Below, piece after piece: positions 23,801 through 41,130 of a stretch of 64,000 nt of DNA. The stretch covers positions 5,376,001-5,440,000 of the forward strand of contig OZ223209.1 in NCBI GenBank assembly GCA_965140415.1. The letters are read 5' to 3'. The DNA comes from Myxococcota bacterium (GTDB lineage: Bacteria; Myxococcota_A; SURF-8). The notes beneath the pieces are model-generated. The model worked only from the letters and a program-made list of their open reading frames with translations. It was not told where the DNA came from and made no database searches. The position numbers and the translations under genes are program-made. The first letter of the stretch is position 1; each line of letters begins with the position of its first letter.

Positions 23801-23870
23801 GAAACCTCCTGTAAAAATGCGAACGGCGGAAGGTTTCCCCTCCGCCGCTCTGGTCCTGACCTCCTTTCGG

Positions 23871-24134
23871 CTACTGGTGGAACGCCACGCCACCGTCGAC
23901 CTTCGGCGTGAGCGCGATGATGTCGCCGTCGTCGGGACGTTCGTGCAATTGGGTGTGGACGCCGTTCAGCGTCGCCATGTAGCCTTCGCTCTGAAAGCCC
24001 GCCGAGAGGAGAGCGTCGGCGATAGTGCCGCCGGCGGGAATGGTGGTAACCTTCTGCCTGCCGATGCTGACGACGGTGATGCGGATGCCATGATTGCGGG
24101 ACTGGGACTGCTGGTCATTCTGGTTTTGGTCCAT
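23871..24134 (-). CDS. Ubiquitin-like (ThiS/MoaD beta-grasp) protein with GG followed by a 5-aa extension
   Basis: TIADAL...LNG...DGDIIALTPKVDGG-VAFHQ; RBS aggagg. Confidence 0.85.
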   Translation of the reverse strand: MDQNQNDQQSQSRNHGIRITVVSIGRQKVTTIPAGGTIADALLSAGFQSEGYMATLNGVHTQLHERPDDGDIIALTPKVDGGVAFHQ

Positions 24135-24232
24135 GATTTCCTCCTAGGATTGGAATGATGGGCGTTGGCCCGGATAGAACGCCATCGGGATGGCGATTGT
24201 CGGAATGGTTCGGTGGTGTACGTACAGGTTCG

Positions 24233-24982
24233 CTACTCGCCATTCTCCTCATCGCCATTCGGCTGGATGACACCGCGCAGGTTCTCGAAGATGGCTTTGA
24301 ACTGCCGGATCTCCGCCTCGTTGCAATCTTCTTCCTTCGCCAACTCCAATACGGCATACGTGCCGGTCGGCATGATGAGAGAGAGTCGGGTCTTGCAGGT
24401 GAACAACGGCAGATCTGCGCGCGAACCGTCGGGAAGTTGGAGTTTGCCGAGGAAATGCCGCGCCAGGAAGCGCTGGACGGGTTTGCGCGACGTGGCTTTG
24501 GCACGGACGATGAACGGATTTTCATCATCCAGATCGATACCAAGCAAGCTGTACACGACATCGCAGTCGGGAGCGGTGGGCTGGCTGTTACCGCGACCCC
24601 AGAGACGATGCTGGCAGCTAGCGCAGTCCACGACCTCACCATCGGCGCGGATGCCTTCCACGCCGTCATCCGAACGGCAGTGTTCGGTCATGCCGGAAGT
24701 CTCGCTGTACGTGGCCCACCTTCGGGACTTCTTGATGTGCAACAGGACGCAGGTGATCTCGTCTTTGGCTTCACCGGTCAGGCTGTTGACGAAAATGTCT
24801 TTCGGAGCCCAGGTTCCGTTATGGAGCTGACGGCGGGTGTTGTAAGCATAGGAAGGGAGCGGCCGATCTTCATTGTCCAGATGGGACAGGGCCTGAAGAC
24901 CGGCCAGCTCTTCGATGAGGGATTGGGGGATGGGAAGAATTGGCGCGCCCGTCGCCGGAGGGGAATGGGTGTTCTCGGTCAT
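24233..24982 (-). CDS. Phage/MGE-type protein with a Cys4 Zn site, possibly ssDNA-binding
   Basis: CRSDDG...CASCQHRLW...PDC motif and acidic C-terminus; function is inferred. Confidence 0.5.
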   Translation of the reverse strand: MTENTHSPPATGAPILPIPQSLIEELAGLQALSHLDNEDRPLPSYAYNTRRQLHNGTWAPKDIFVNSLTGEAKDEITCVLLHIKKSRRWATYSETSGMTEHCRSDDGVEGIRADGEVVDCASCQHRLWGRGNSQPTAPDCDVVYSLLGIDLDDENPFIVRAKATSRKPVQRFLARHFLGKLQLPDGSRADLPLFTCKTRLSLIMPTGTYAVLELAKEEDCNEAEIRQFKAIFENLRGVIQPNGDEENGE

Positions 24983-25057
24983 GGCGTTTCTCCTCTGTGA
25001 AATTGGGATAGGAAGTAGGAATGGTATTGCGCGACGCCTTCGGGAGCGTGATCGTCA

Positions 25058-25759
25058 TCAGACCGAAAGAGAAAGCTTCGCCGTCTGAGCCAGTTCGCGG
25101 CCAAGCGCCTTCAGGCGATGATGGGCTCGGCTGACGCTCATCCCGACCGCCTTTCCGCACTCCTGGAAACTGCCTCCGGCCAGGCGCGCCGCCAGCAAGC
25201 GGCGATCTTGCTCGGTCTGCTCGTCAAGCCAGGCTTCCAGGTCGAAGGCGCTGACGAGCTGGTCCTCCACGTCGCGGGTCGCCGCGTAGGAGACGGCGTC
25301 AACGAAGCTCATGGGATTGTCGCGGGTCAGGTCGTTGTCGGCATAGGGACCGGGCTCCACGTCGGGCAAACCGTCGAAGCGCAGAACTTGGATGCCGTCC
25401 CACAGACAGGCCATTGCGCCCATGACATCCCGGCGACGGCGACGACCGGGGACGAAGCAGTGGGACGGATCGAAAGCCTTGAGTCGCAGGCCATGAACGA
25501 GCGCCCCGCGGTCGGTGGAATGACCTTTCATCGCCGCGGAATAATAATCGCGCCAGATCAGGCACAGGGCTTCCTGGAATCGGTCTTCCGCATCGTGCGC
25601 GTCGTCCAAGTGGCGCATGACCGGATTGAAGATGTCATCGGCGATCATGTCGCTGAAATTCGCGTTGATCGCTTCGTGGGAAAGGGGAAGAGGTGAATTC
25701 AATTGAAGGGGATGATGGGGGTGATCGGGTTGGGAATCGGTTTGCATACAGTTTTCCAT
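25058..25759 (-). CDS. ECF/sigma70-region-4-like transcription factor
   Basis: AEDRFQEALCLIW (region-2-like) and GGSFQECGKAVGMSVSRAHHRL HTH; RBS aggagg; paralogue at 46236. Confidence 0.65.
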   Translation of the reverse strand: MENCMQTDSQPDHPHHPLQLNSPLPLSHEAINANFSDMIADDIFNPVMRHLDDAHDAEDRFQEALCLIWRDYYSAAMKGHSTDRGALVHGLRLKAFDPSHCFVPGRRRRRDVMGAMACLWDGIQVLRFDGLPDVEPGPYADNDLTRDNPMSFVDAVSYAATRDVEDQLVSAFDLEAWLDEQTEQDRRLLAARLAGGSFQECGKAVGMSVSRAHHRLKALGRELAQTAKLSLSV

Positions 25760-26378
25760 GATTCGGACCTCCTGGTCGTGTTCAACGCGCACGAAGGCCG
25801 TTACCACCGGCCCACGCGCAGCGTCGCCGCCTTGCGGGCGGTGGGTTTGATTGGGACGGGAAACATATCCCGCCGATTCTTGATGTATGGTTACGCGCCG
25901 TGCAAATCAGCGCGGATTTGAGCTATAAGACTTGTGTCAAAACTTGGTGCTGGCCGTTCGGATGGACGCGAATCGTCTGAATGTCGTGGATCCGTGCTCG
26001 CGAGGCTGGTAGGGAAATATGAGACGAGCCGGATATCAGATTCGTTACACAATTCTTATACAATTATTCTGGCAGAACTTGCATTTCAGTCCCTACTGAG
26101 CCCGTTTGGTCCGGAAAACAGTCCAAAAAATATTTGAAAGGCTGTTTTTTCCTACTGATTCGACTTTTTTCTGGAGAGGGAACAGGGAAAAACAGCCTCC
26201 ATTTTGGCGTACGGACTGATCGAAGGAATATGGAGCCTCGTTTTACCTATAGAAACCGACAAGGCGGGTGTCGCAACTGTCGGTGCAAGGCGCCGAATAG
26301 ACCTGATTGAGAGCAGGGGGTGGGTCCCCTATGGGGCTGGAATTGAAATCTCTATAGGACTAGCGGAATACGAAGCAC

Positions 26379-26490
26379 CGACGTCGCAGGGTGACTGTGC
26401 CGACGTCGCAGTCCTGCTGCTATACGACGTCGCATGGGCGGGTATCGATGTCGCTTGGAGCCTACAGGAGCCTATCTGTACCGACGTCAC
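26379..26490. repeat. Phased CGACGTCGC motifs
   Basis: Copies start at 26379, 26401, 26425, 26446 (1 mismatch) and 26482 (1 mismatch). Confidence 0.6.
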
Positions 26491-26703
26491 TCCATCGTAT
26501 ACTCCAGCACCGTGGCTGCCAGCACCGTATAGAGGTCGAAGGGAGGGAATGGCAGTATTTGCGGCAAACGTTTTCCGCCCGCGTCCTTCACTCGCCGTCC
26601 AGGTGGGGGATCACCGGCGTGACGGTGTCTTCGCCGTTACCGGGTTTAACGTTGTTTGCGGGCGTCGGGTTTATATCGCTCATGGCTTCCTCCGTGTAAC
26701 TGG

Positions 26704-27138
26704 TTATTCGAACAGGTTCCGCAGGCTACTTTTCGATGGCCGGTCCCAATTGGCGAACCAGAGTGGTTTGACCGGCTCGCCGTTCTCGTCCGTTGAGACA
26801 TTCACGGCCAGCGGCATCATCTTCATGTACGACCCTTCGCGCACTAGATCATATCCATTTCTGCGGCACACTTCACGCGCAACCTGAGTGACCCAACTTC
26901 CCTGTCTATTCGATAGTAAGGCGTAGTAGCCGCCTGCGTTCCAGCGCCTGACCCATTCGCGGATCGATGCGGTCGAACAATCGAGTTCAGCGGCTACGTC
27001 TTTCTGCGGCTGTCCATTCATCAGCTCCAGAATGGCGCGCAAGCGACGTCGTAATCGGTCATCTGGTTCCCGGTCGATCAGTGACTGGAGTTGTGCAGGG
27101 CTGAACAGCGTCTGGTCCGGTTGTTTCAACGGCGGCAT
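26704..27138 (-). CDS. Transposase-type (IS630/IS481-like) HTH protein
   Basis: RRRLRAILELMNGQPQKDVAAELDCSTASIREWVRRWNAGG. Confidence 0.7.
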   Translation of the reverse strand: MPPLKQPDQTLFSPAQLQSLIDREPDDRLRRRLRAILELMNGQPQKDVAAELDCSTASIREWVRRWNAGGYYALLSNRQGSWVTQVAREVCRRNGYDLVREGSYMKMMPLAVNVSTDENGEPVKPLWFANWDRPSKSSLRNLFE

Positions 27139-27656
27139 GGTCTAACTCCTATCGCGCTGTTCAGTTTCGCAATCGAGTCCTCCAGTTCCTGCCACTGCTC
27201 ATTTTTCACCGTTCTGTAGATCGCAGGTGAAATAGCGAGGGGGACTGCGCGAGGTTTGCAGTCTCCCAGTAAGATATCCATGCCGTGATCGCGAAGGTAT
27301 TTCCGCTGAGGAGGAAAGATCGTATCTTTGCCGGTCAGAGTGTGGAGCAGGAATAACCCCTCGTAGCTGCCCACGTTCCAGAATCGTGTCCATAGGACCA
27401 GTTCTTCACCGCTGATATCCTGTCGCTCAAGAATCCAGCGCCAGGACCGACCAAGCATTAACGCTCGTATAGCGCGCAATCTGCGGACAGGTTCCTCTTC
27501 TTTGCCTTCCCGGATGAAGTACTCGATCTGCTCAACATCTTCCTGCAAGGCCCCCTTCGGCAGAAAGGTCGGATTTCTCTCCATCGGAATTCTCATCAGT
27601 TCCAGGATGTACGACCTTACCCGATCAGCATAGACCCCATTATTTCTATTCGTCAT
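27126..27656 (-). CDS. Divergent HTH protein, paralogue of 26704-27138
   Basis: RRLRAIRALMLG...WTRFWNVGSYEGL and PLAIS match the neighbour. Confidence 0.6.
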   Translation of the reverse strand: MTNRNNGVYADRVRSYILELMRIPMERNPTFLPKGALQEDVEQIEYFIREGKEEEPVRRLRAIRALMLGRSWRWILERQDISGEELVLWTRFWNVGSYEGLFLLHTLTGKDTIFPPQRKYLRDHGMDILLGDCKPRAVPLAISPAIYRTVKNEQWQELEDSIAKLNSAIGVRPCRR

Positions 27657-27918
27657 CTTCTGCGCCCCGCTTCTGGCGCAATCCCGCAGCTTCCATCACA
27701 CTGGATGGGCCGAACCTTTTGTCGATCAGTCCGCTTTCGTTTCCCGCAAGGAACTGCTGCCGCCACCGGTATGCACTGCTGCGGCTGATGTTTAGGATCC
27801 GCGCCGCCGTTGCTACCGGTTCTCTGCGGCCAACGACGGCATGCAGAAATAAGGTCCGCAGCCAAAGCTGACGCTCGGGCTGAAAGACGAAAGGATCAAT
27901 GGGCATTGTGTCGAACAT
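27646..27918 (-). CDS. Small HTH protein
   Basis: VATAARILNISRSSAYRWRQQFLAGNESGLID. Confidence 0.65.
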   Translation of the reverse strand: MFDTMPIDPFVFQPERQLWLRTLFLHAVVGRREPVATAARILNISRSSAYRWRQQFLAGNESGLIDKRFGPSSVMEAAGLRQKRGAEDDE

Positions 27919-28127
27919 CGCCAGTCTTCCTTGGACGGTTAGGATTCAGGAATCGCGGATTCACCATAGAATTCAGGTGGTCCGGTGAATCCGTGAGTCC
28001 CAACCATTGTTTTTAGGATACACCAAGCAAGAGTTATAAGTCAAGACTACTAAATGATTAGATACTATTCACTGGACGGAACAAGCTCCTGTACGTACAA
28101 TGCTGCGATATGCTTTCGGGAGGTGAC

Positions 28128-29114
28128 ATGCCCAGACCAAAGCTCGACCCCAAACAACGACTGCGCCTGCGCGCACTCAAGCGCGCGGAAAAGGTCGGCA
28201 TGACCGCTGCGGCAAAGGAGTCCGGGATATCGCGCGTCATGCTGCACCGGTGGCGCGATCGGTTCGAGGCCGATGGAGTCGAGGGATTGCGCGACCGTTC
28301 TCATCGTCCGCACCGTACACGGGCCACATCACCGGAGGTGGCTGAGCAGGTGATTCGGACTGCGCTTCAGCATCCCACCCATGGTTGCCGCAAAATCGTC
28401 GGCGCGCTAGCCGAGCGGGGCATTTCTCTGAGCGAGCCGACCATTCAGTCCATTTTAGTAGACCGGGAACTCGGTCTGGCTGAACAAAGGATCGGCCGGG
28501 TTGAACGGCGCATCCTCAGCGGTGCGTGCAAGCCGTCCTCAGATCTTCTCGCGGAGGTGGAGGCGGCGGATCCTACATTTCGTGAACGGACACGACCGAT
28601 ACCGCGCCCCGGCAGTCTTCTCATAGCCGACATCCCTCGCGGAGGCATCACTGAGGACGGGAGACGGCTCAGCATCGTGGTGATCGTGGACGCCGGTTCT
28701 GGGTACATCTGGGCATGTCCATGTACGGATCTGTCCATGCTCCCGCACATCGAGATTCTACGCAGCCGGGCTCTGCCGGATCTGGCTCGTTGGAACCTAC
28801 GTCCTGCGACGATCACTACGTCGGACAGTCCCGAATGGACGATGGACAGTCTGGAGGGTCGAGCATTCAAGCTGTGGTGTCGGGATGGATTCCACCTGCG
28901 ACACAAAGTCCCGCCAGAAAGAGTGAGAAACGGTTTTATCGAAGGGTTCCAGCGGGAGTTCCAGTCCTGGTACCGTCGGGCGGAACTGCATGGGTCACCG
29001 TTGAAAGAGATCGAGGAGGCTCTGGGAAAATGGTTGGAGGAGAGGAACGCGAAGGTGCGGCGGTCGTATCCGCTTTTTGGGAGGTCACCAGGAGAAATGA
29101 TCACGACCACGTAA
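28128..29114 (+). CDS. IS481-like transposase/rve integrase-core protein, divergent
   Basis: HTH (GISRVMLHRWRDRFEADGVEGLRDRSHRPH), IAD...VIVDAGS...TSDSPEW...NGFIEGF; RBS ggaggt; no terminal IRs recognised. Confidence 0.65.
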   Translation: MPRPKLDPKQRLRLRALKRAEKVGMTAAAKESGISRVMLHRWRDRFEADGVEGLRDRSHRPHRTRATSPEVAEQVIRTALQHPTHGCRKIVGALAERGISLSEPTIQSILVDRELGLAEQRIGRVERRILSGACKPSSDLLAEVEAADPTFRERTRPIPRPGSLLIADIPRGGITEDGRRLSIVVIVDAGSGYIWACPCTDLSMLPHIEILRSRALPDLARWNLRPATITTSDSPEWTMDSLEGRAFKLWCRDGFHLRHKVPPERVRNGFIEGFQREFQSWYRRAELHGSPLKEIEEALGKWLEERNAKVRRSYPLFGRSPGEMITTT

Positions 29115-29200
29115 CACCGATGCCCCTTATATCCACCACACCATTGAATCCGCCCCGCCGGTATGAAACCATAGCCCCATACCGACGGAGCGACATGGAG

Positions 29201-32200
29201 CTATTTCTCCGCCCAGCTGGTACCATAACCGCAGTCCACCAGCCCCTTAACGCTTGCCTCGGGGAAAACCTCCAACATCCCCTCCGTCATGGCGTCGGTC
29301 AGTATCTGCTGGACCTCCTCGGCATCACCAGCATCCGCCTCGACAATCAGTTCGTCGTGAACCGCACCCACTAACGCAGCATTCACCCCGGACTTCTCCA
29401 ACTTGGCGATCAATCGCGCCATGGCGGCGTACAGCACCTCTGCCGCGGCACCCTGGACCGGGTAGTTGTATACCCGGAACGGCGTCAACTCCCTTGCGCC
29501 GAACACAATCTCCCGACCGGCCGGAGTGCGTACCGAGTTCGATTGTTTGGCCTGCCGGAGAGCCCGGTTGTGCCACGAGTCGAAGCCAGGGTAGGATTTG
29601 AACCACGCCTGCCGGTGCTGCCGGGCCTTGGCCAGGCTCATCTGTATGCCGTAATTCTCCTCGGCGTATTTCCGAAGGCCCTTGGCCGATTGCCCGAACA
29701 ACAGGCCGAAGTTGATGGCCTTTGCCAACCGACGCTCCTCCTTCGTGACTTCCGCAGGTTCTTTGCCCAGCAACACCGCTGCGGTCATCGTGTGGACATC
29801 CACGCCGCGCTTATAGGCCTCCAAGAGAATGCTCTCAGGTGCGATATAGGACGCGGCCCGCAGCTCCATCTGGCCATAGTCGGCGATAACCAACCGGCGG
29901 CCCTCCGGGGCAACGAACAGGCTGCGAAACGCTGCCTCCCTGGGCATCTGTTGCAGATTCGGCTTCGAGCAGCTCATGCGCCCGGTGATCGCGCCAGCCA
30001 GCTTGAAATCCGCATGGATCCGTCCCGTTGTAGGGTGCAGATGTTCGATCAGGCCCTTTCCGTAGGTAGAACGCTGCTTGGATACGTCCCGATACGGCAG
30101 GAGAAGGTTGCTCACGATGGCCCGCACGTTCTTGGGAAGTAACGACAGTCCCGACTGCAGCTCGGCAGCTCCCACACTCAACGCGCCGGAAGCGGTCTTC
30201 GGCCAGCGCGCCAAGGCCTTTTCCCCACTCTCCTTCAGCTGGGACGTGACCCACTCGCCGAGTTGTTTGGTGCTGTTCGGGTTCCGCCCACCCAGGGCCT
30301 TCACCAACTCGGCCCGCAGCTGCGCCTCCCGTTCTTCCACGTCGGCCATCAGCTGCGCATGCGCATCACGGTCGAAGGCCATCCCGGTCACGCGCATCTG
30401 CACTACGGCCGGTTGCGCGCCGATGACGAGATCGTAGGCGCGCCGGCTGTCCCGGCTTTCGACTTCTGCCTCAATTCGCTCGAACAAACGTCGAGTGACC
30501 TCGGCGTCCCTGGCTGCGTAGGCCAGCTGCGAGTTCGACAGCTCACCGCTCCAGTCGGATTTCTGAAGCTTCTTGTCCACGGTTTCACCCAGCCAGTGTT
30601 CGGCGGCCTTTTCCAGGGAAACAAGCTCGCCGGTGACCAGATGGTGACCGAGCTTCGTGCAGCCCAGGTTGCTGGTGATCCCGGTTGCCATCAACATACC
30701 CATGTCGAACACGGCGTTGTGCGCGATGCCGCGGATCTGTCTCAACGGCTCCCGTATGGCCCCGAGTCCACCGATCTTGTCCATGTCAAGTACGACCACC
30801 GGCCCATCCTCCGGCGCCAACTGGATGAGCCGAATGCAATCCAGGATAGGGTCCAACCCGGTGGTCTTTACATCCAGACCGACCCGCTGGCCCGAGTCCG
30901 CAAGTTCACCAACGACCCGCCGCGCTTCTTCCACGTCACTGATCAGCGTATAATCGACTCCAGTTGGTGCGTTTACGCATTCAATTCGCGCAGCGGGCGC
31001 ATCCATCCTCTCTGGCGAAGGAGGCCTGTTCGGCGGTACTGGCTCCGGATTGCAACCGATCGTCAGCAGCGAGTCATCCCTGACCGGTGTTTCCGGTTGG
31101 GGCAAGGCCTCCCGCAGTGCTCGACCGAGATCCACAGTCTCCAAGGATTCATCTCGCGGTTGTTCTCCGCTGCTCCTGTTGAACCCATGAACATCCACCT
31201 CTTCTAACCGGTGCCAGGCCTTATGGGCGTAAAGAGCGACGTCGCCGGTCATACCACGATGCCGCACAAGGGAGAGTCGCACCCGACCGCCCGCACCGGG
31301 ACCGAACTTGGGATATTGCTGATCTAGTTGCTGGACATGCCGAAAACAGGCCTGGGCGCGAGTCTCGTCGCCGCGCAACCGGGCTTGGTGACCCACAAAT
31401 TCCCAGGGGTCAATCGTCACCTGAGTTGCGTTCTCTCCTTTACCTTCTTTCACATGAATCGCCTGCGTCTGCATCGTGAGGAGGCCGTCCGCGGCATGCA
31501 CAATGGCCAGGCTATCCCGTGCCGAATTCACGTCGATCTGGCCCTCGGTATTGGCCTGCCGCTCCGCCTCTTTCGTTGTAGATGACAACGCAATCACTAC
31601 CGCACCCGTTTTACGCGCCAGATCTTTACAGGCCACAGCCAGATTCGTGACCCGGGTGGTCGTGTCGCCATACCGGTCAAGCTGTTCGACTCCGGTGCGC
31701 GCAAGTTGCAAATAATCGATTACGACGATCGGCGTTTTATCGGGATGCTGTCGACGAACACGCCGAACCCATGCACCGGCATCCGCCAACGTCGTCTCCA
31801 GTCCGGCCTCCCAGATCTCCAGGAACCGACCTTCGTTCTGAAGATACTCAGTCAGACCTTTGGCAAAAGCCGTCACTTCCTCGGCCGCCAACCGCTGCAT
31901 CTCGATCCGGCGGGAATCGATCCCCAGCCTGCGAGCCATGGCGTATATCAGCATCTGGTGTTTCGACATCTCGTAGCCGAGGTACATTCCCGGAACGCCG
32001 GTCACCGCAGCGTAATCCAGGCACTGAGCGGCTAACGTCGTTTTGAGCCCCTTGGGTGGCGCGACGATGACGTACAGGCGTCCACCATGCCAGCCACCGT
32101 GGAGCAAGTCGTTCAATGTTCCGAATGGAGTGGAGATAACGGCGTTGGTGTCCCGCGCAAACAGCTCGACGACCCGGGCCTGCTGCTGGATGAGAGGACC

Positions 32201-33748
32201 GTGTTGGCCCGTCTCAAGCAGGCAGCTCTCCAGGTTGTGCTGCAGCTGATGAACCACCGCAGCCGCTGACGGACTGCTATCACTGGAGTTCGCCTCCGAT
32301 AGAACCTGATGCACACGATACCGCCGCTCGAATTCCAAGGCCCTGTGGTACGCCGCCTGCCCGGCTTCCGGGCTGTAGGAATGCGCGTGTAACTGTTCCA
32401 GGAACTTCTCCACGTCCTCCACCAACGCGTCCCGGTATTGCGCGACACTGCGCTCGGATATATCACGATCGAGTTCCCGATAAACCGCTGCTGATGTCAA
32501 TCCGCCATTGGTCATGGCCCGGGCCACCAGGGAGGCTGGGCTGTAGGTCACCGTGATTTCGCCGTTCGACATTAGAGGGCGATCCGGCCAGACGTGCTCT
32601 AACCGGTGAACCGGAAGGCCTTCCTCCATGGCGGACCGGAGCAGGTCGAGGGCGACGGGAGGTTCGATCTGCCGCAACCCGAATTCAGACACGGACGGCG
32701 GAGGCCACTCGTCTGTCCGCGCCGAACAGTCTCGGCAGCTGAAAAACTCCCGCCAGCCCTTCATGCCGCGCGGATAATCACAACGGAATTCCGCGTTGTG
32801 GTTCGAGAAGAAATTTTTGATCTTCCCATCGAACGTCTTGCTGCTCGGGTGATCCTCAGAGGCCTCGGCCAGTTTGGTCGCCAGGTACCGGGATGCCTTC
32901 TTATCCAGTCCCCTCGAATGCGCATATTTCGCAAGATTTAGGTTGGCCTTATCGTAGTCGTACTCATGGGACGCTCCGTGTTCCAACATGGCGTCGATGC
33001 AGGGCGGGTGCTCGTACTCCGGTAGTTTCGACCAGTCTGGTTTGACAGAAGGCCCGGACTGCTTCGGCTCCCGGAACCCAGTCGCCTGCGCCTCCTGTCG
33101 TATCCGGTCGTAGGCCTGCCGGAACACCGCCACCGTCACCGCCTTGGTGTTCGCCAACAACGAGACCTGCTCCTCCAGGTCCGGCGGATCCTCGAAACCT
33201 GTGGGAGGCGCGCTGTCGGAGTACCCAGCCGGGTCCAGATACGCCGACCACAACCCCGATCCGCGATGCTTGCAGACCGGCAGCTTCATAACCGCCTGCG
33301 CCGCCTTGGTCGGGACCGCCGTATCGGGCCGGACATCGATGTGCCCTGCGCCGGGACAAGCCACATTGAGCAGATGTTTAAGAAAGGCCTGCAATTGCCC
33401 CGCCCGCACCGGTTCCGCCAGGCAGAAATCAAGGCCGTAGCCCTTGCGCCCGCTGTTGCAAACCAGAGGTGTGGGAAGGCCCAGTTCCTCTATCTTCCGC
33501 AGAACTGCCTGGACCAGAAGCCATTGATCCGCACCGCCGTCGAAATCGAGACGACCCACCCGACAGGTGCTCTCCGGTCCAACGATGTTCAAGGCCGCCG
33601 TCTGCTCACCGCGAAAATGGGCGCGCAGATCTTCATCGGTGATAGGGGCATCCCGGGGCAGGTAGGCCTCGCCGTCCTTGCTCTGGATGTGGACGGCCTG
33701 GCTGGGAACCAAGTACAAACGCATTACCTGTTCAGTCAATCTCTCCAT
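29201..33748 (-). CDS. Fused AEP-type primase / DnaB-like helicase / 3'-5' exonuclease / family A DNA polymerase
   Basis: LDFDG, SGRKG, HPPCIDAML (primase/PriL-like); APPKGLKTT, VVIDYLQL (SF4 helicase); GLDVKTTG, HNAVFD, YAARD (exonuclease); TGRMSCSKPNLQQ, ADYGQMELR, KAINFG, VHDE (PolA). RBS aaggagg. Confidence 0.85.
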   Translation of the reverse strand: MERLTEQVMRLYLVPSQAVHIQSKDGEAYLPRDAPITDEDLRAHFRGEQTAALNIVGPESTCRVGRLDFDGGADQWLLVQAVLRKIEELGLPTPLVCNSGRKGYGLDFCLAEPVRAGQLQAFLKHLLNVACPGAGHIDVRPDTAVPTKAAQAVMKLPVCKHRGSGLWSAYLDPAGYSDSAPPTGFEDPPDLEEQVSLLANTKAVTVAVFRQAYDRIRQEAQATGFREPKQSGPSVKPDWSKLPEYEHPPCIDAMLEHGASHEYDYDKANLNLAKYAHSRGLDKKASRYLATKLAEASEDHPSSKTFDGKIKNFFSNHNAEFRCDYPRGMKGWREFFSCRDCSARTDEWPPPSVSEFGLRQIEPPVALDLLRSAMEEGLPVHRLEHVWPDRPLMSNGEITVTYSPASLVARAMTNGGLTSAAVYRELDRDISERSVAQYRDALVEDVEKFLEQLHAHSYSPEAGQAAYHRALEFERRYRVHQVLSEANSSDSSPSAAAVVHQLQHNLESCLLETGQHGPLIQQQARVVELFARDTNAVISTPFGTLNDLLHGGWHGGRLYVIVAPPKGLKTTLAAQCLDYAAVTGVPGMYLGYEMSKHQMLIYAMARRLGIDSRRIEMQRLAAEEVTAFAKGLTEYLQNEGRFLEIWEAGLETTLADAGAWVRRVRRQHPDKTPIVVIDYLQLARTGVEQLDRYGDTTTRVTNLAVACKDLARKTGAVVIALSSTTKEAERQANTEGQIDVNSARDSLAIVHAADGLLTMQTQAIHVKEGKGENATQVTIDPWEFVGHQARLRGDETRAQACFRHVQQLDQQYPKFGPGAGGRVRLSLVRHRGMTGDVALYAHKAWHRLEEVDVHGFNRSSGEQPRDESLETVDLGRALREALPQPETPVRDDSLLTIGCNPEPVPPNRPPSPERMDAPAARIECVNAPTGVDYTLISDVEEARRVVGELADSGQRVGLDVKTTGLDPILDCIRLIQLAPEDGPVVVLDMDKIGGLGAIREPLRQIRGIAHNAVFDMGMLMATGITSNLGCTKLGHHLVTGELVSLEKAAEHWLGETVDKKLQKSDWSGELSNSQLAYAARDAEVTRRLFERIEAEVESRDSRRAYDLVIGAQPAVVQMRVTGMAFDRDAHAQLMADVEEREAQLRAELVKALGGRNPNSTKQLGEWVTSQLKESGEKALARWPKTASGALSVGAAELQSGLSLLPKNVRAIVSNLLLPYRDVSKQRSTYGKGLIEHLHPTTGRIHADFKLAGAITGRMSCSKPNLQQMPREAAFRSLFVAPEGRRLVIADYGQMELRAASYIAPESILLEAYKRGVDVHTMTAAVLLGKEPAEVTKEERRLAKAINFGLLFGQSAKGLRKYAEENYGIQMSLAKARQHRQAWFKSYPGFDSWHNRALRQAKQSNSVRTPAGREIVFGARELTPFRVYNYPVQGAAAEVLYAAMARLIAKLEKSGVNAALVGAVHDELIVEADAGDAEEVQQILTDAMTEGMLEVFPEASVKGLVDCGYGTSWAEK

Positions 33749-33959
33749 GGTCTCCTCCTTCACGAGAGAGTAGGCCCGCAACAGCGCCACCACGGCGCGG
33801 CGCGGTGCATAGGCCTATTCTCCCGCGAGGGGGAGGCCGCCCGCCACGGCCCCAGACGGGGGCGGCGGACTCACCCCTTCTTGGGGGTGCTTGAGGATAC
33901 TTGGGCCTCCGCGACCGGACAGATATGACCTGATTTCAGTTGGTTACAGGATCGGGCGC

Positions 33960-34020
33960 GAAAATAAGTGGTGGGTGTTCGGAAAATAAGTGGTGGGTAA
34001 ACGGAAAATAAGTGGTGGGT
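33960..34020. repeat. Three iterons with 22-bp period (putative oriV)
   Basis: GAAAATAAGTGGTGGGT at 33960, 33982 and 34004, just 3' of the putative rep gene. Confidence 0.85.
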
Positions 34021-34043
34021 GATTGTAAGAGCTTGACATCAGG

Positions 34044-36137
34044 TCAGTTTTTAGGCTTCTTGCGTGGCCCGGGCTTTTCTAGTTCAGAGACTAGAATTCG
34101 CTTATCTCTCTTTAAATCCATGGATTTATACATCACCGCATAATCTTCTGCCCCTTTGATCTTTACGAGCTCTCCCAGCGGGTTGGCTGGCGACGGGATT
34201 TCCACCGACCAGTCGGCAATCACCCCGGCCTCCGCCACCTGATCGAGTGAGGTAAATATCCGGTTGGCAGCCTTTTTAGGTGTTAGGCTATTGATCAGCG
34301 AGCCGAGACCGAGAGCATGTAGGATGGTTTCCACCCGCGTGCCGTTGCCATTCGGAGTCTCCAACTCGGTGGTTCCGAGATTCCTGTACGTCGTGCGGAG
34401 GCGCAGCTCGATGTACAGTTGCAGCGCGGGGGCGGTATGCAGGACTTTCCCTCGATAGCTGAACATGGCCTGACGGTTCGTCACCATATAGAGGGCACGT
34501 TGGCCTTCCCCGGTGATGTAGGACGCCAGCTGGGGGTTGATCCGCCAGTGGATGGCATGAGGTTCACCTTTACGGATATCGACTGCCGAGACCTGGATGA
34601 TGCCCGTGATGATCCGCTCCTGGCCTTTATTCCTGAGACCAGAAAAAGGGATGTTGATGCGGCGGGCGACATTCATGAAGGCGAAGAACAACTCGCGAGG
34701 ATTGAGATTTTCGCCGAGGATATTGGTCGTTCCCCTCCTGGTGATCCGGTCAATCTTGTCAGGGCGAAGAGTTTTCCAGAAGTCAGCAGCGGTGGTGACG
34801 GTATCGTGGCCGTTGTTTAGCGTGCCGTTTTCCTCCGCCATCTGGAACAGGCCCACGTATCCCTGCGGCAGGAGCCATGGGACATTCGGCGCGACAAACA
34901 CGGTCTGCACCGAGTTTAGCAGGGTGTCTTTAGACAGGTCATCGTCAATCACCGCGAATTCAAGGTCGCGGTAGGAACGGCTTTGTGAAACCGGGCGTTG
35001 CAAGGCCAAAGCCTCGGCACCTTGACCAGTTGTAACGATGGAGAGTGGTTTGTCCATTTCCGGGTTCACCTTCAGCACCGGCATGTGTGGGATGATATCT
35101 AAGAAATTGGATGGTACCTCTGTGAACTGACCGCGTAGTTCGGCACGTTGATCCGCATTACGCTCAATTCGACACCGCGTCATGTCCAGTTGCCGGCTCG
35201 CTCGGAGGAGTCGTTCTCTATGGCGGTTGATGTAATCGGTTAGACTGAGATACAATTGGCGAATTTCACCGATATACCAGTCGACTTGCTCGCCGGACGT
35301 ATCAGGTGAAAGTTCTCCAAGATCCTTCCGATGTCGAAAAAGTTTAGCAAGTTTCTCGGCCAGCTTGCCGGTGAATTCAGGTGTAGGGATGTCGATCCGC
35401 TTGTTGGTCGGGCCTTCAATGAGCCAGAATTGAATGGTTTCGTCGTCTGAGTCAGAGAGAGTTGTCCCGCAGATCAGACGTTTCGTCGGGATTTTTAGAC
35501 GATCCATCAGGTCATACAGGGCGGTCCAGAATGCCAGGTCGTAGTAGGACTCGACTTCATCCGCGAACGGCATATAGGCGATGCTGGCTTGGGGGGTAGT
35601 AGTTGTACGGCTTAGTATCGAGTGGTTTGGGATCGCGTCCAGATATGCCTGCACGTACTCCAGCTCGGTTTGTTGTTGCTCGCGGAACTGTCTCCGGGCG
35701 GCATCCTCTCTAAACAGCCGTACTTCGGTGGTTTTCGTTGTGGGTGACGTTCCCTCCATCGCGGTTACATTCGATTCCACGCGCAGGACATCTTCGTGGC
35801 CGGGCTTACGCCAGAACCGAGTCTCCAGGTGGGTCAGCGCAGCCAATGGGAACTCCTGCCACAGGTCGGTGGCGGCATCCTCCACGGATCGGTCACCAAC
35901 CGGTTCGGGGTAGCAGTAGAAATAGCCCTGGGCGAATGGTTTTTTGTAGTAGCCCGTCCAGTGGTCATCTGCAGCGGGCATCGCTACGTCGATCACGTTG
36001 ACGGTGAGACCGCGCGCCGGGACTATGGGCAGGTCGATCGTGGCGAACGGGGAATTAGGTGTGGTGAAGGGGATTAGATTCATGTTTACCCGCTTATCGA
36101 AAAACGGTGTAGATATTTTATTTGTGCAGGGTTTCAT
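34044..36137 (-). CDS. Putative replication initiator (Rep), uncharacterised
   Basis: Long ORF whose stop abuts the iterons; function from context only; alternative start 36083. Confidence 0.5.
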   Translation of the reverse strand: MKPCTNKISTPFFDKRVNMNLIPFTTPNSPFATIDLPIVPARGLTVNVIDVAMPAADDHWTGYYKKPFAQGYFYCYPEPVGDRSVEDAATDLWQEFPLAALTHLETRFWRKPGHEDVLRVESNVTAMEGTSPTTKTTEVRLFREDAARRQFREQQQTELEYVQAYLDAIPNHSILSRTTTTPQASIAYMPFADEVESYYDLAFWTALYDLMDRLKIPTKRLICGTTLSDSDDETIQFWLIEGPTNKRIDIPTPEFTGKLAEKLAKLFRHRKDLGELSPDTSGEQVDWYIGEIRQLYLSLTDYINRHRERLLRASRQLDMTRCRIERNADQRAELRGQFTEVPSNFLDIIPHMPVLKVNPEMDKPLSIVTTGQGAEALALQRPVSQSRSYRDLEFAVIDDDLSKDTLLNSVQTVFVAPNVPWLLPQGYVGLFQMAEENGTLNNGHDTVTTAADFWKTLRPDKIDRITRRGTTNILGENLNPRELFFAFMNVARRINIPFSGLRNKGQERIITGIIQVSAVDIRKGEPHAIHWRINPQLASYITGEGQRALYMVTNRQAMFSYRGKVLHTAPALQLYIELRLRTTYRNLGTTELETPNGNGTRVETILHALGLGSLINSLTPKKAANRIFTSLDQVAEAGVIADWSVEIPSPANPLGELVKIKGAEDYAVMYKSMDLKRDKRILVSELEKPGPRKKPKN

Positions 36138-36196
36138 CTCAACTATCCAGGAACAACCGAAAGGCTTTGTTATCTATGAAAACCCTACACACTGTG

Positions 36197-37609
36197 TCAT
36201 CCCCGCGCATGTCGATTCAGCCTAACGCCGGAATATACAAGGCCTTTTCGCGTTCGGATTTTCTCGAACCGCTCGGACATTTTTTTGCCGAATGCCGTTT
36301 CCGTCATCGGTTTGCCACCGCGTTCCGTACAGTAGGTTCGGTAACGACTATAAAATTCTCGCGCTGTGCTGGCTGTTGGGAATCCGGGTTGAACCTCCGG
36401 ATCGACCGTCACCTCGTCGCGCAAAAAGGCATCAATCGTGGCGGATTCCTGGGCATCGGCGTATGCCTCGGTCTCGTCTGCAATCCAGGAGAGTGCGGCG
36501 GCGGGATCGCTGCGTTGGTCAATAAACCCGGCGGTATCGGTCCTGAGCGGCTCCAGCAACCAGTGGAGGAATGCGGGCCCCTCCTCGAATAGAGCCTGAT
36601 GCCTTAGAAATTCGTAATCCTCCGTGGCTAGCATCCCTTCGGCCGGGATGACATGGAACAATTTTGGTATCTCGTCGCGAGAACCATGAAACACCGGGGT
36701 GCCGTGGTCGGCTGGCGTTGTCATGATGATGGTATACGGCGGCGCGAGTATATCGACCGTCTCCGTTTTGGAGAGGTTAAGCTGGATTTCCGGACGTTCG
36801 TAGAACGGCCATAGAATCCGCTCGTCCAGCATGGCATATTTCGCCAGATGGATGTCCACGGCGAGGCGGAGACCGAGTAGTTGCTGGAGCGGGCGATTTC
36901 TATTTGGTTCGATAGCTGCTGTAACTGGTATTTCAACACAGTAGCTGCCAGCGATCTGGACAATTAACTGGAATAGCAACCGGATGCCATCCATATCGGC
37001 TGCTTTCAGAACGATCAGTTTTTTTGCTCTGAATCCTGCTAGTACGGAACCTAGGTATCGACGGAAAAATTCAACCTTTTCGATATCATCATCGAATAGC
37101 GTTTTTAAAACCCTCATAATCCGATCGCATTTGCCAGTTTGATTTATTGGCAACCGAGTAGATGCCAGTAGGAAAAAGTCCGGCGTTGTCGAATTCAGTT
37201 GACCTGTACGGACGTCATACAACCCCGCCGGTGTGTTTACATACCCGACATGCCTCTGGAAATAGCGGATATCCGTTTCACAGACGGCCTCAGTCAACCT
37301 CAAAATTTCGCGGTAGACGCTGGTTTTAGCCAACGCAGCTGCACGACTGGCATCCGCCCAACGTCCCTGCCGCGATAGCTGGTCAGCAAACTGGAGAATT
37401 ACCGATTGGATGTCTGGGAACAGATCGTTCTCACGAACGGGTTCAAATATCCGCCCATTGAACCGCAGCCACTTTATGGTCGGGTTATACGCCAGAGCCG
37501 AGCCATGCTCTCGTAGAAATGCCTCTGCAATCGCCGGTAGGCCGACGAAATTCTGCTCCAACAACCGCGCCACTTCTGGACCGAGGGTGGGACTATTTGT
37601 TTTGGTCAT
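36197..37609 (-). CDS. P4/D5-family primase-associated SF3 helicase-like protein with degenerate NTPase motifs
   Basis: WLRFNGRIF, VNTPAGLYDVRTG, FFRRYLGS, C-terminal wHTH (FYSRYRTYC...TAFGKKM); Walker A position reads LKAADMDGIR. Confidence 0.75.
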   Translation of the reverse strand: MTKTNSPTLGPEVARLLEQNFVGLPAIAEAFLREHGSALAYNPTIKWLRFNGRIFEPVRENDLFPDIQSVILQFADQLSRQGRWADASRAAALAKTSVYREILRLTEAVCETDIRYFQRHVGYVNTPAGLYDVRTGQLNSTTPDFFLLASTRLPINQTGKCDRIMRVLKTLFDDDIEKVEFFRRYLGSVLAGFRAKKLIVLKAADMDGIRLLFQLIVQIAGSYCVEIPVTAAIEPNRNRPLQQLLGLRLAVDIHLAKYAMLDERILWPFYERPEIQLNLSKTETVDILAPPYTIIMTTPADHGTPVFHGSRDEIPKLFHVIPAEGMLATEDYEFLRHQALFEEGPAFLHWLLEPLRTDTAGFIDQRSDPAAALSWIADETEAYADAQESATIDAFLRDEVTVDPEVQPGFPTASTAREFYSRYRTYCTERGGKPMTETAFGKKMSERFEKIRTRKGLVYSGVRLNRHARG

Positions 37610-37892: not shown

Positions 37893-39134
37893 CTAATTAT
37901 GTTTTGTTTTACCTCGCTTACGATTTGAGCCCAATATTTCTAGACCGAGTTCATCCGCAATTGAGTTGCTATATATCCCAATTTCCTTTGTGTGATTTGT
38001 ATCGCAGCCATCTATATCGTACTTTGATTCTATTGGAGGAACAATTCTGCGAACAGCCCACTCTATATGGAGATTTCTAATTTTAGGATTTTGCTCGGTA
38101 TACATTTCATCGATTTCTTCATCTGGCACTAAGCCGAACTCCTCTGGAAGTAGAGGTCTAATCCCGTCTTTTTCCAAGCAATCAAGATACTTTTTCAAAT
38201 CAGCTCTGAATTTGTCCTGGATCCTTTTTTCCGCCTGCTTCCTTTCTTCACCATTATCAATCCACCAGAAATCACGAAAATGAAACTGGAGTGCGGTTGG
38301 GATTTCTTGTGGGTTATTATCATAATGCAGTTGACGTTTCTGCTCGTCGCTCATCCAGTCTGGCATAAGAATTCGTTCTCTGTTATCGAAGAACGGAAAG
38401 GCCAGCCATGGCGTACCATTGCGGAAGAGATCAATTAGTAACTCATCATCAAGTCCGTTTATGCAGCATCGAATCCAGAACTCCGGTTTAAGAAAGAAGG
38501 TCAAACGCCACCGTTTATTGACCGGAACCCTCTTGTCGGAGGCAAGCAGGTCTGCAAGTGCCGAGATGAGACATTTCCATCTTAAATTTTCCCAATATGT
38601 AAGATTTCCGAGCTTAGATGCACGATTGCTGCCCCCCGAGTACTTTGCAGAAAATTGGACATCACGTTCTATTTGAAGACGTTTCTCTTCAGAGAATGGA
38701 GCAGGGAGAACCGGGGCAAACACCTCTTGCCTAGCGAACGCTTCACCGTTATTTAACCAATACCAAAGTTGCCGCTCAGCATAACCAACGCACCATCCAG
38801 CCGTGAGGTTGAACTTGGTGAGGTAATTTTCTAGCTCACAACGAAATTTCGCGTAGCAATCTATTGCCTGTACCGCATTAACATTCTTTCCCTGAAAGCA
38901 TTGAAAGATATTATAGAATTCATCAAGGGTGGAAGCTTTCGCCATTGCAAGAACCGCTTCTTCAATGTTGCTGATTGTACTAATTGAATTGATCGAATCA
39001 AGCCAGTCTTTGTAAATCTGCAATCCTTCCTTTGCAAGGTCTCTTGAAAATTCTGGTCGCAGTTCAAGTGTATTTTTCCAGAACAAACTCATTAGCGACA
39101 CTAAATCTGGTCTTTCCCAATCTGAGTGGGTCAT
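37893..39134 (-). CDS. Hypothetical protein (AT-rich), coupled to the integrase
   Basis: 413-aa ORF with a 4-nt overlap with the integrase stop. Confidence 0.7.
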   Translation of the reverse strand: MTHSDWERPDLVSLMSLFWKNTLELRPEFSRDLAKEGLQIYKDWLDSINSISTISNIEEAVLAMAKASTLDEFYNIFQCFQGKNVNAVQAIDCYAKFRCELENYLTKFNLTAGWCVGYAERQLWYWLNNGEAFARQEVFAPVLPAPFSEEKRLQIERDVQFSAKYSGGSNRASKLGNLTYWENLRWKCLISALADLLASDKRVPVNKRWRLTFFLKPEFWIRCCINGLDDELLIDLFRNGTPWLAFPFFDNRERILMPDWMSDEQKRQLHYDNNPQEIPTALQFHFRDFWWIDNGEERKQAEKRIQDKFRADLKKYLDCLEKDGIRPLLPEEFGLVPDEEIDEMYTEQNPKIRNLHIEWAVRRIVPPIESKYDIDGCDTNHTKEIGIYSNSIADELGLEILGSNRKRGKTKHN

Positions 39135-40303: not shown

Positions 40304-40378
40304 GAACGTGCATGTCCTCGTCTATTTCTTGCCCAACCGTCAGCAGTCTTGCCCCGGATTCAGCAGGTCGTAAAAATG

Positions 40379-40439
40379 AACGTACGCCCGTCGTACAGAG
40401 GCTCGAAAAACCATAAAAGAACGTACACCCGTCGTACAG
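40379..40439. repeat. Direct repeats, probable integrase arm-type sites
   Basis: AACGTAC(G/A)CCCGTCGTACAG at 40379 and 40420. Confidence 0.65.
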
Positions 40440-40546: not shown

Positions 40547-40593
40547 GATTCGTAATCAGCAGGTCAGCGGTTCGAATCCGCTCGTTGGCTCCA
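40547..40593 (+). other. 3' half of tRNA-Thr(CGT), att site
   Basis: GATTCGTAATC anticodon arm, GGTTCGAATCC T-arm, ends GGCTCCA; no 5' acceptor strand or D-arm upstream. Confidence 0.85.
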
Positions 40594-41090: not shown

Positions 41091-41130
41091 TGGCCGGGCA
41101 GTCGATCCCTGGTCAGTGTTACAGGTGCTG
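41091..41130 (+). pseudogene. Second JAB 3'-end relic, inverted
   Basis: 37/40 nt identical to the JAB gene; encodes GRAVDPWSVLQVL. Confidence 0.75.

Follow-up and report, generated by a model that had tools for sequence, protein, structure and literature searches.

Gene Model and Domain Order

The stretch of DNA analyzed here (the window) comprises 64,000 nucleotides of contig OZ223209.1 (positions 5,376,001 to 5,440,000, forward strand; assembly GCA_965140415.1) from a Myxococcota bacterium of the GTDB lineage SURF-8, whose genome is a single contig of 5,975,757 bases. On its reverse strand the window carries a putative replicase gene (29201..33748), which an earlier note, made from the sequence alone, had described as a primase, a helicase, an exonuclease and a family A DNA polymerase (PolA) joined in one polypeptide. 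The open reading frame (ORF) listed by program, 29201..33793 (-), encodes 1530 amino acids (aa), begins at a GTG and shows no interruption. An ATG at 33748, located 5 nt past AAGGAGGAG, opens a gene of 1515 codons plus stop (29201-33748, -), with the frame open back to the GTG at 33793. This ATG is the likely start, since the Shine-Dalgarno sequence AAGGAGG precedes it by five bases. Residue numbers are counted from the GTG (protein P0001), and ATG-based numbers are obtained by subtracting 15. The gene is followed by a terminator-like hairpin (29191-29174). No sigma-70-like promoter was detected within 28900-34200 by a promoter scan, and Rfam at gathering thresholds gave no match anywhere in the window.

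The Pfam analysis of the protein detected DNA_pol_A at residues 1145-1529 (E 1.7e-77, 261 bits), DNA_pol_A_exo1 at residues 949-1111 (E 2.6e-15, 57 bits), DnaB_C at residues 553-785 (E 4.3e-19, 69.3 bits against a cut-off of 27) and, at residues 49-155, the archaeo-eukaryotic primase (AEP) family AEP-TOTE (PF22548, E 5.5e-6), the latter with 26.6 bits, under its gathering cut-off of 27. PHROGs and NCBIfam concurred on the polymerase and the helicase. All four domains claimed for a single uninterrupted ORF of ~1515 aa were therefore present, the AEP being recognized by its fold. From the N- to the C-terminus, and all encoded on the reverse strand, the order is an AEP (Prim-Pol) domain (residues 16-234; 33092..33748), a four-cysteine, PriX/PriCT-like helical domain (residues 249-360; 32714..33049), a region resembling the N-terminal (collar) domain of DnaB (residues 368-529; 32207..32692), a DnaB-type RecA-like ATPase domain (residues 544-870; 31184..32164), a 3'-5' exonuclease domain (residues 945-1115; 30449..30961) and a family A polymerase domain (residues 1116-1530; 29204..30448). 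The ATPase and the exonuclease are separated by a poorly conserved linker (residues 871-944; 30962..31183, -), whose consensus is mostly undefined in the family alignment and which has the highest dN and dS of all segments.

Primase, Helicase and Polymerase Domains

Because the AEP-TOTE match fell just under the sequence threshold, the fold was tested. An AlphaFold2 model of residues 16-545, built from an alignment of 28 family members (1454-1575 aa, the window's own protein counted), reached a mean pLDDT of 85.2, and a second, separate model of residues 246-545 reached 85.3. With the first model, Foldseek retrieved the CRISPR-associated Prim-Pol 7nqf_B (E 4.2e-11, TM(target) 0.80). In VIA-align, the AEP region was superimposed on 7nqd_A over 193 residues (Z 21.9, root-mean-square deviation 2.4), on the polymerase domains of LigD and Prim-PolC with Z 13-16, and on eukaryotic PriS with Z 11.6-11.8. 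The NCBIfam model of the CRISPR-associated Prim-Pol (NF040561) also matched this region (E 5.4e-8), and the AEP-TOTE cut-off was cleared by several relatives, e.g., P0071 (56 bits) and P0101 (69 bits). As modelled, residues 16-234 have an AEP Prim-Pol fold, which bears out the AEP-type primase that had been proposed for the N-terminus. No Toprim family was found among the Pfam matches to the protein at E <= 0.1, in agreement with the earlier view that this primase is not of the TOPRIM type present in PREX, the apicoplast replicase.

Residues D83, D85 and D157 are invariant in the 28 aligned sequences and were modelled at the ends of beta-strands; following the usual AEP pattern, we take D83 and D85 to be the metal ligands of motif I and D157 that of motif III. 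S114-G115-x-K117-G118, in the motif II region, R155-P156 and H176 are also invariant. The same applies to four cysteines located further on, C265, C338, C353 and C356 (28/28). Residues ~249-352 matched only PriX of the Sulfolobus PriSLX complex (5of3_C, 89-91 of 107 residues aligned), with Z 6.2 and 6.0 in the two models, middling values in a range that is common among helical domains. Residues 249-360 are tentatively assigned, from the models, to a PriX/PriCT-like helper domain, and the four invariant cysteines probably bind a metal or an Fe-S cluster. The authors of PMC5862659 argue, in the available text, for a relationship among several helper modules of AEP primases, namely PriX, the PriCT domains and the PriL Fe-S domain, and a four-cysteine helical domain placed directly after the AEP fits that picture.

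Residues ~368-529 were matched in VIA-align by 4zc0_A (Z 7.9-8.0) and by the DnaB N-terminal domains of four species (Z 7.1-8.0), including 3gxv, 2r5u and 4nmn, as well as by T4 gp41 (Z 6.5-6.8) and the helicase-binding C-terminal domains of DnaG (Z 5.0-7.5). When the second model was used, the six best rows were all DnaB-family N-terminal or related DnaG domains, with a Z that is middling for a helical domain, although the kinds of proteins matched and their place in the chain agree with a collar. The closest solved sequences to the ATPase domain were bacterial DnaB proteins (6kza, E 4.7e-11), and neither T7 gp4 nor Twinkle was among its 17 solved-structure matches. Since the collar-like fold matches accompany a DnaB ATPase domain, the helicase is probably a complete DnaB-type protein, with collar and ATPase; the superfamily 4 (SF4) helicase predicted earlier is thus of DnaB type. 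Its Walker B motif, VVIDYLQL, is conserved in the 28-sequence alignment.

The polymerase motifs are intact (A, DYGQMELR; B, RRLAKAINFGLLFG; C, VHDE). The closest solved polymerases were 8jrb and then the apicoplast PREX (E 1.5e-65, versus 9.4e-47 for Taq). A quick maximum-likelihood tree was built with the last 600 residues of 53 of 60 proteins and no Aquificae sequence; P0002 (P0001 from the ATG), P0011, four intein-bearing proteins and P0057 were left out. The AEP-DnaB family and the Prim-Pol+PriCT_1+PolA proteins formed one clade (SH-aLRT 98), next to which stood the TOPRIM-PolA fusions (SH-aLRT 99), and the sister group was composed of Cyclospora PREX and DUF3987-PolA fusions. Between the fused forms with PREX on one side and the Pol I and Pol theta sequences on the other, the separating branch had an SH-aLRT of 92. 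By its sequence, the polymerase belongs to the PREX/Aquificae-like group of family A. Additionally, two metagenomic proteins of 970-1041 aa (P0037 and P0038) were found to join Toprim_2 to an exonuclease-PolA part of the same polymerase group, one of them also with a zinc-ribbon family; judged by these matches, part of PREX has a counterpart in these bacterial or mobile-element proteins.

A Second Genomic Copy and a Family of Full-Length Relatives

A second full-length copy of the gene is located at 3376735-3381324 of the genome. The two copies are 84.5% identical in DNA without any indel, and their ratio of nonsynonymous to synonymous substitution (dN/dS) is 0.16 overall and 0.09-0.43 by segment. 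They depart from 341 family-conserved columns at 55 and 50 positions, mostly shared ones, which indicates lineage-specific change and not the decay of one copy.

A word-indexed protein search returned 59 proteins at E <= 0.001. About 30 of them have the DnaB_C-exonuclease-PolA architecture, with 37-45% identity; two are the genome's own and the rest come from metagenome assemblies, none being named beyond 'DNA polymerase I'. The check for full-length homologues thus yielded 27 further full-length sequences that were aligned with the window's protein.

The N-terminal part (residues 16-365) was also compared by HMMER with 1.84 billion representatives, and 282 matches were obtained at E <= 0.001, 67 at <= 1e-10 and 11 at <= 1e-30. 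Twenty-three of the listed matches were scanned against Pfam. AEP and DnaB_C without a polymerase were found in 11 proteins of 700-957 aa (AEP-TOTE in 10, LigD_Prim-Pol in 1), AEP-TOTE and PolA without a helicase in two (P0095, P0101), and all four domains in one (P0066, 1335 aa). Two proteins (P0063, P0064) had DnaB_C and the exonuclease with no PolA match, P0064 also having AEP-TOTE; three (P0065, P0075, P0078) had AEP-TOTE alone, two (P0110, P0119) only helicase-type domains, and two (P0070, P0092) no Pfam match. The parts therefore occur in several combinations, of which the window protein is the most complete.

When the N-terminal 530 aa were searched in the phylum sample, 5 of 401 genomes matched, the window's own counted. 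The other four were rejected as family members, as they gave weak AEP matches only (E 1e-5 to 1e-3). Profile searches of genome contigs and of viral contigs with the full-length alignment did not provide relatives either, as they responded to generic DnaB peptide patterns, the best 80 loci of each matching the helicase part only (query residues within 468-896 and 405-844, 23-31% identity). In the phage collection only the polymerase part was matched, and no record covers 80% of the query.

Fused Relatives on Metagenomic Contigs and a Split Form on Cyanobacterial Plasmids

Three loci (L175, L176 and L177) were obtained when metagenome contigs of the Joint Genome Institute (JGI) were scanned with the N-terminal alignment. 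L177 comprises 12328 nt of a 13482-nt contig; it begins with the C-terminus of the polymerase (window ORF residues 1244-1537) and ends in the N-terminal part (residues 23-870), and a ParA gene follows the replicase gene. As the missing 1154 nt match the missing ~373 residues, this contig is probably a circular replicon of 13.5 kb. In L175 a ParA gene lies directly after the replicase gene, and L176 carries a type-ISP-like restriction-modification gene, Fic, a serine resolvase and a DEAD-box helicase.

A tblastn search of PLSDB detected three small closed cyanobacterial plasmids in which the module is split in two genes, with 30-32% identity to the window protein. The AEP-DnaB gene encodes 875-1001 aa and the exonuclease-PolA gene 719-865 aa, and the two genes abut or lie <= 43 nt apart. 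Their annotations go no further than 'DnaB-like helicase C-terminal domain-containing protein' and 'bifunctional 3'-5' exonuclease/DNA polymerase'. In pAL20118a (12,210 bp), the AEP-DnaB gene of 875 aa is followed by the exonuclease-PolA gene of 737 aa; the junction reads TAAATG (L178:6875-6880) with GAGGAG before it, a layout that suggests translational coupling, and it falls at the same point where the window gene is fused. The plasmid pGM04 (16,994 bp) also carries type ISP restriction-modification and Fic genes, as L176 does. The third plasmid, pDongsha4a (L180, NZ_CP084099.1; 26,702 bp), contains two units of ~13 kb, each with a tyrosine recombinase, a protein of ~560 aa, three repeats, an AEP-DnaB gene and an exonuclease-PolA gene, and looks like a cointegrate of two ~13-kb replicons.

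Tandem Repeats and a Conserved Gene Upstream of the Replicase

Three tandem 22-bp direct repeats (33960..34028), a candidate iteron-type origin or operator, lie 16 bp past the stop of the upstream gene and precede the replicase ATG by 212 bp. The repeat core has 3 matches in the window versus 0.09 expected. Across the 5.98-Mb genome, 23 arrays with a period of 20-24 and at least 2.8 copies were detected by Tandem Repeats Finder (TRF); a period of 22 is shown by two of them only, and each of these two precedes one of the replicase genes. At all nine loci examined, i.e., the window, copy 2, L175, L176, L177, pAL20118a, pGM04 and both units of pDongsha4a, three tandem repeats of 21-23 bp were found upstream of the primase-helicase coding region; those of pGM04 are the last three of eight dispersed copies. 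Six different repeat sequences are involved, since copy 2 repeats that of the window and one pDongsha4a unit repeats that of pAL20118a. The number, period and place of the repeats are kept while their sequence changes, as expected of sites that co-evolve with a specific protein, like iterons, and we infer that they act as a replication origin.

The conserved gene further upstream (34044..36137, -) encodes a 697-aa protein, a candidate initiator or loader, with no match in Pfam, PHROG or NCBIfam. In L176 (E 2e-31) and L177 (E 3e-24), the replicase gene is likewise preceded by a homologue on its own strand, and L175 ends too near the replicase gene for an upstream partner to show. Within this family, the C-terminal half is conserved. 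An Atlas look-up of the 697-aa protein gave a weak lead to a cluster with Rep3_N in 15% of its members (recognition 1730), and that of a 546-aa protein gave weak leads only. Owing to its conserved position and its conserved C-terminal half, the 697-aa protein is the best candidate for the repeat binder in this lineage. The upstream proteins of the cyanobacterial plasmids split into two unrelated groups, with a helix-turn-helix (HTH) annotated in two cases. The homologue at copy 2 (L006:1575-3656, genome ~3381575-3383656) has 94.6% protein identity to the window's, above that of the replicase genes.

The Island and Its Three Genomic Copies

Beyond the 697-aa gene, the island encodes a 470-aa D5_N/P4-family primase C-terminal protein of superfamily 3 (SF3) helicase type (36197..37609, -), with a possible C-terminal winged helix (Pfam D5_N, E 5e-12; PHROG primase families, E 1e-27; TIGR01613, E 4e-22), which is shared with copy 2. 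A 413-aa ORF with no assigned function (37893..39134, -) lies between this helicase and the integrase and is absent at copy 2. The tyrosine integrase (39131..40303, -; 390 aa) matched Pfam Phage_integrase and Arm-DNA-bind_3 as well as phrog_1 (E 1e-55). Beside its start there are two 25-nt direct repeats, 41 nt apart (40374..40439), which may be arm-type sites, and the intact tRNA-Thr gene, at another place in the genome, is followed by a motif like them. The 3' part of tRNA-Thr(CGT), from the anticodon loop onwards, is present as a 47-nt fragment (40547..40593, +), a likely remnant of an attachment (att) site. Its edges, 40547 and 40593, also appear as loose ends in the contigs of two sequencing runs. 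The integrase and the fragment are 5.4-6.8 kb from the replicase gene.

The intact tRNA-Thr(CGT) gene is located at genome 5323439-5323514, 93 kb upstream of the fragment. Several islands may be stacked in this 93-kb stretch, although no copy of the tRNA-Thr core was found inside it. A third, identical 47-nt fragment is present at genome 4179293-4179339, where there is no tRNA gene. The window contains no tRNA gene according to ARAGORN, and at the left end of the island, near 21500, the tRNA-Thr core was not found again. When the integrase end and the left end were compared in search of att direct repeats, the only result was a 40-nt inverted match (41091-41130 versus 21511-21550), which was discarded as an island-specific terminal pair because it is a member of a dispersed family. 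The tRNA-integrated element proposed earlier is thus a possible reading of the integrase beside a tRNA-Thr fragment and of copy 2 beside a tRNA-Pro; the window itself has no tRNA gene.

The left arm of the island (21503..29114), which is common to three genomic copies, contains, besides small HTH proteins and unknown ORFs, a transposase gene of IS481-like type (28110-29114, +; NCBIfam E 8e-31, under the cut-off). This gene occupies the same place in all three copies and hence seems to be a component of the island rather than something inserted later. The left terminus lies at ~21500; the sequence 21503-21575 gives 8 matches in the genome including itself, several of them short remnants (some 40-550 nt), and left-end sequence is matched inside the window at 4849-4921 and 41091-41130 (inverted). 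The copies become homologous within the last ~13 codons of a terminal 403-aa ORF (21463-22674, -), which suggests that the element ends within this ORF. Neither capsid, terminase nor conjugation genes were recognized around the replicase by Pfam, PHROG or NCBIfam. No excision joint was seen among the short contigs of two sequencing runs, which are too fragmented to look for an excised form.

Copy 2 matches the window at 21504-27211 and 28039-37588 with 82-84% identity and abuts tRNA-Pro(GGG). In the third copy (genome 2767684-2775541), homology with the window is confined to the left arm (window 21497-29036, 88-90% identity). In this third region (2767684-2781472, L173:5684-19472), the place of the replicase module is taken by a truncated family A polymerase of 558 aa (Pfam E 1.1e-22), an ORF of 221 aa and a DUF927 helicase of 685 aa, which carries a Cch HTH domain and matches the SCCmec Cch1 model of NCBIfam (E 3.9e-19). 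The 697-aa protein shows no similarity to this helicase. One replication module has been exchanged for another in otherwise homologous islands, which is good evidence that the window gene is the replication module of its island.

Outside the island, three paralogous Kelch-repeat proteins (623, 531 and 1166 aa; window 9141-20679) share 300-nt repeats and adjoin a 1431-aa ORF without a family match. A 1462-aa protein with five Lcl C-terminal domains (window 41246-45634) contains long runs of 15-nt acidic repeats of D-G-D type, and repeats like these occur at dozens of other places in the genome. An IS4/IS5-type transposase split in two overlapping ORFs (window 49433-50214) and an IS200-type Y1 transposase (window 60567-60995) were also observed.

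Comparison With Known Systems

Like the replicase described here, PREX of Plasmodium, Toxoplasma and other Apicomplexa joins a primase, an SF4 helicase, a 3'-5' exonuclease and a family A polymerase in one chain; its polymerase is the second-closest solved relative by sequence and falls in the same major PolA group of the quick tree. By contrast, its primase is TOPRIM and its helicase is read by Pfam as AAA_25 (Cyclospora, P0046), whereas the replicase has an AEP, a putative four-cysteine helper domain and a DnaB-like helicase with a probable N-terminal collar. Moreover, PREX is eukaryotic and organelle-targeted, while the replicase is found on bacterial plasmids and islands. The proposed analogy with PREX is reinforced by the same order of activities and by the related polymerase.

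In the T7 replisome, the ring-shaped SF4 helicase gp4 carries its primase on the N-terminal side, and the family A polymerase gp5 is located on the other; these are separate proteins, the primase is of the TOPRIM type and thioredoxin is the processivity factor. By analogy, the N-to-C order of the replicase (primase, collar, ATPase, polymerase) would mirror this arrangement.

The other systems are compared here on the basis of the text of the cited papers that was available. OS3173 Pol, a 1606-aa polyprotein of Aquificae viruses in the proposed genus 'Pyrovirus' (PMC7689252), also combines a putative primase/helicase with an exonuclease and an Aquificae-like PolA. Its N-terminus is DUF927/COG5519 instead of AEP and DnaB, and its carriers are tailed-phage-like genomes of 37-42 kb with capsid and terminase genes, neither of which was recognized on the window island. 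N-terminal AEP-PolA fusions have been reported in ~7% of the bacterial sequences of the same PolA cluster (Czernecki et al., 2023; PMC10201439); a DnaB-type helicase is not mentioned in the available part of that paper, and the part of its supplementary sequence library that was searched has no 'AEP' or 'DnaB' match. At least three AEP-PolA forms were found in the present analysis, namely Prim-Pol (PF09250)+PriCT_1+exonuclease+PolA (P0032-36), AEP-TOTE+exonuclease+PolA (P0095, P0101) and AEP+DnaB+exonuclease+PolA.

Triple fusions have also been described in phages (PMC4889955): gp55 of Lactococcus phage 1706 consists of an SF3 helicase, an AEP and a PolB, and Pas55 of Actinoplanes phage phiAsp2 of an SF3 helicase, a DnaG primase and a PolA. 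Both resemble the replicase in being helicase, primase and polymerase in one polypeptide, and both differ in the helicase superfamily and in the primase or polymerase family. According to the same text, SF4 helicases are paired with an AEP in only 19% of cases (Kazlauskas et al., 2016). The CCPol-MP-Cch2 module of SCCmec (polymerase, partner and helicase; PMC7581432, PMC10061031), reported mainly in Bacillota so far (PMC10061031), is likewise a replication module of mobile elements built on a family A polymerase and resembles the module of the third island copy; unlike the replicase, it has a polymerase of another subgroup, neither AEP nor DnaB, and separate genes.

The cyanobacterial plasmids pAL20118a, pGM04 and pDongsha4a share with the window the domains, their order and the three ~21-bp upstream repeats, and pAL20118a and pDongsha4a a tyrosine recombinase, but have two genes instead of one. 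In the literature, most subscription journals lying outside the search, neither a single chain of AEP+DnaB+exonuclease+PolA nor the three-repeat element nor the cyanobacterial pair of genes was found to be described. Primase-helicase-polymerase fusions as such are already known from PREX and phages. The architecture is therefore only partly new: this particular combination was found in no paper, but triple fusions of other make-up and AEP-PolA fusions of the same PolA cluster have been published, and the unfused pair of plasmid genes had been annotated.

Proposed Role and Alternative Explanations

We propose, with a probability of roughly 80%, that the gene is the replicase of small mobile replicons, which exist as plasmids of 12-27 kb and as chromosomal islands bearing an integrase. 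The earlier idea of a self-replicating island has gained support from the iteron-like repeats, the relatives with ParA or a probably circular form, the plasmids with the split module and the exchange of modules between islands. From the observed domains, their order and motifs, the purifying selection, the repeats and the gene contexts, we infer every step of the following mechanism. An element-encoded DNA-binding protein, most likely the 697-aa protein in this lineage or, alternatively, the D5/P4-type SF3 helicase, would bind the origin formed by three tandem repeats of 21-23 bp. By means of its DnaB-like collar and ATPase domains, the replicase would then form a ring on single-stranded DNA and unwind in the 5'->3' direction. 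The AEP and the four-cysteine PriX/PriCT-like domain would be placed on the collar side, which in bacterial DnaB is the docking site of DnaG, and prime the emerging strand, and the exonuclease-polymerase, tethered to the ATPase side by a flexible linker of ~75 residues, would extend the primers. Primase, helicase and polymerase would thereby be united in one polypeptide, comparable to PREX in the apicoplast and to gp4 together with gp5 in T7. The fused gene may have arisen by the joining of two genes that are still separate but abutting on the cyanobacterial plasmids.

Several points weigh against this proposal. All the activities of the replicase are predicted from sequence and fold. No single-stranded DNA-binding protein, clamp or ligase was recognized on the island by general family scans. 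The circular form of L177 is deduced from 12328 of 13482 nt. A common initiator would be conjectural, given that the comparison of the 697-aa family with the syntenic upstream proteins of the cyanobacterial plasmids gave a probability of 0.2% in hhalign and nothing in BLASTP. At the histidine position of the primase motif II (sGxGxH), glycine is present in 22 of the 28 aligned sequences and histidine in 6, the window protein reading SGRKGYGL; activity is not thereby excluded, because some AEP families, e.g., PolpTN2, also lack this histidine (PMC5862659, available text).

The remaining points concern the copies in this genome. The Walker A motif reads PPKGLKTT (32036-32062) in the window protein and its paralogue, compared with PPK[A/S/T]GKTT in 25 of the 28 sequences, P0021 being scrambled there; the glycine before the P-loop lysine is lost and the canonical GxxxxGK[ST] is not matched. 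In the window copy, motif ExoI is D974-V-K976 and not D-x-E, as a result of a single G-to-A change (codon 30866-30868, AAG versus GAG in the paralogue). D-x-E is found in 26 of the 28 sequences; P0029 has H-F-E along with degenerate ExoII and ExoIII, which are intact in the window copy (HNAVFD and YAARD). The exonuclease claimed earlier is thus present as a domain but lacks the catalytic glutamate of ExoI in the window copy. By analogy with the classical exonuclease-deficient Klenow mutants, this E976K change predicts a window copy without proofreading. Finally, the homologue of the 697-aa gene at copy 2 has one in-frame stop ~150 codons in. In view of K976 and of this stop, the integrated copies of this genome may be partly disabled.

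Taken further, these defects could mean that the integrated copies are decaying relics, the replicase family being real while the window gene no longer replicates. Of the 28 aligned sequences, only the window copy has the E976K change, the deviant Walker A is present in both genomic copies and the partner gene of copy 2 has a nonsense codon. Furthermore, no recognizable integrase exists between copy 2 and its tRNA-Pro or nearby, and short left-end remnants (8 matches, the query included) are scattered through the genome. However, a dN/dS of 0.16 is maintained over 4.6 kb with both frames intact, the two copies depart equally from the conserved columns (55 and 50 of 341) and mostly at the same positions, the window integrase, partner gene and repeats are intact, and a polymerase deficient in the exonuclease is still able to replicate DNA. 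This explanation is consequently considered unlikely, though it keeps some weight.

It is rather improbable that the protein is a precursor which is cut into a primase-helicase and a polymerase and acts like the two-gene version of the plasmids. The natural split form has its boundary at the same place, the linker at residues 871-944 is the least conserved stretch, and proteolytic processing has been reported for the Plasmodium enzyme, Pfprex (PMC7689252, available text). Nevertheless, no protease was recognized on any of the elements by general family scans, and the fusion is kept in 28 independent sequences.

A conflict or defence system in place of a replicon has very little probability. 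The only AEP model of Pfam that matched, AEP-TOTE, was built for the TOTE conflict system, and the CRISPR-associated Prim-Pol (CAPP) is both the NCBIfam match (E 5.4e-8) and the closest fold. Yet the AEP-TOTE score lies under the Pfam cut-off (26.6 versus 27), and no other defence component was recognized beside the gene in general family scans, no PADLOC scan having been made. The repeats, ParA, the small closed plasmids with the module as their largest genes and the SCCmec-type swap all fit replication.

An assembly artefact joining unrelated genes has a negligible probability, and a misjoin is excluded, because, even though the contigs of two sequencing runs are short and none of them spans the gene (every bin of the region being covered), the single 5.98-Mb contig holds two diverged full-length copies (84.5% identity, dN/dS 0.16), 27 further full-length proteins with the same domain order come from other assemblies, and three metagenomic loci carry the same gene.

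Implications

The replicase of small mobile replicons proposed here adds to what was noted earlier a candidate origin, a conserved partner gene, the split and fused forms, and the plasmid and integrated states. A function is also proposed for two vaguely annotated genes of sequenced cyanobacterial plasmids. If true, a single chain that primes, unwinds and copies DNA from a short origin would be a compact model replisome for structural work, as well as a portable replication module for vectors in bacteria that are hard to transform.

A more tentative and rather doubtful extension is that the repeats and one polypeptide, with at most one partner, constitute a complete, host-independent minimal replicon, which works in unrelated bacterial phyla and moves between the plasmid and the integrated state, and that the same pool of elements, in which PolA is combined with AEP+DnaB, Prim-Pol+PriCT, TOPRIM or DUF3987, was perhaps the source of PREX. 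The polymerase lineage of the replicase of the malaria plastid circulates on bacterial plasmids and islands with several primase-helicase modules, and this bears on the origin of PREX.

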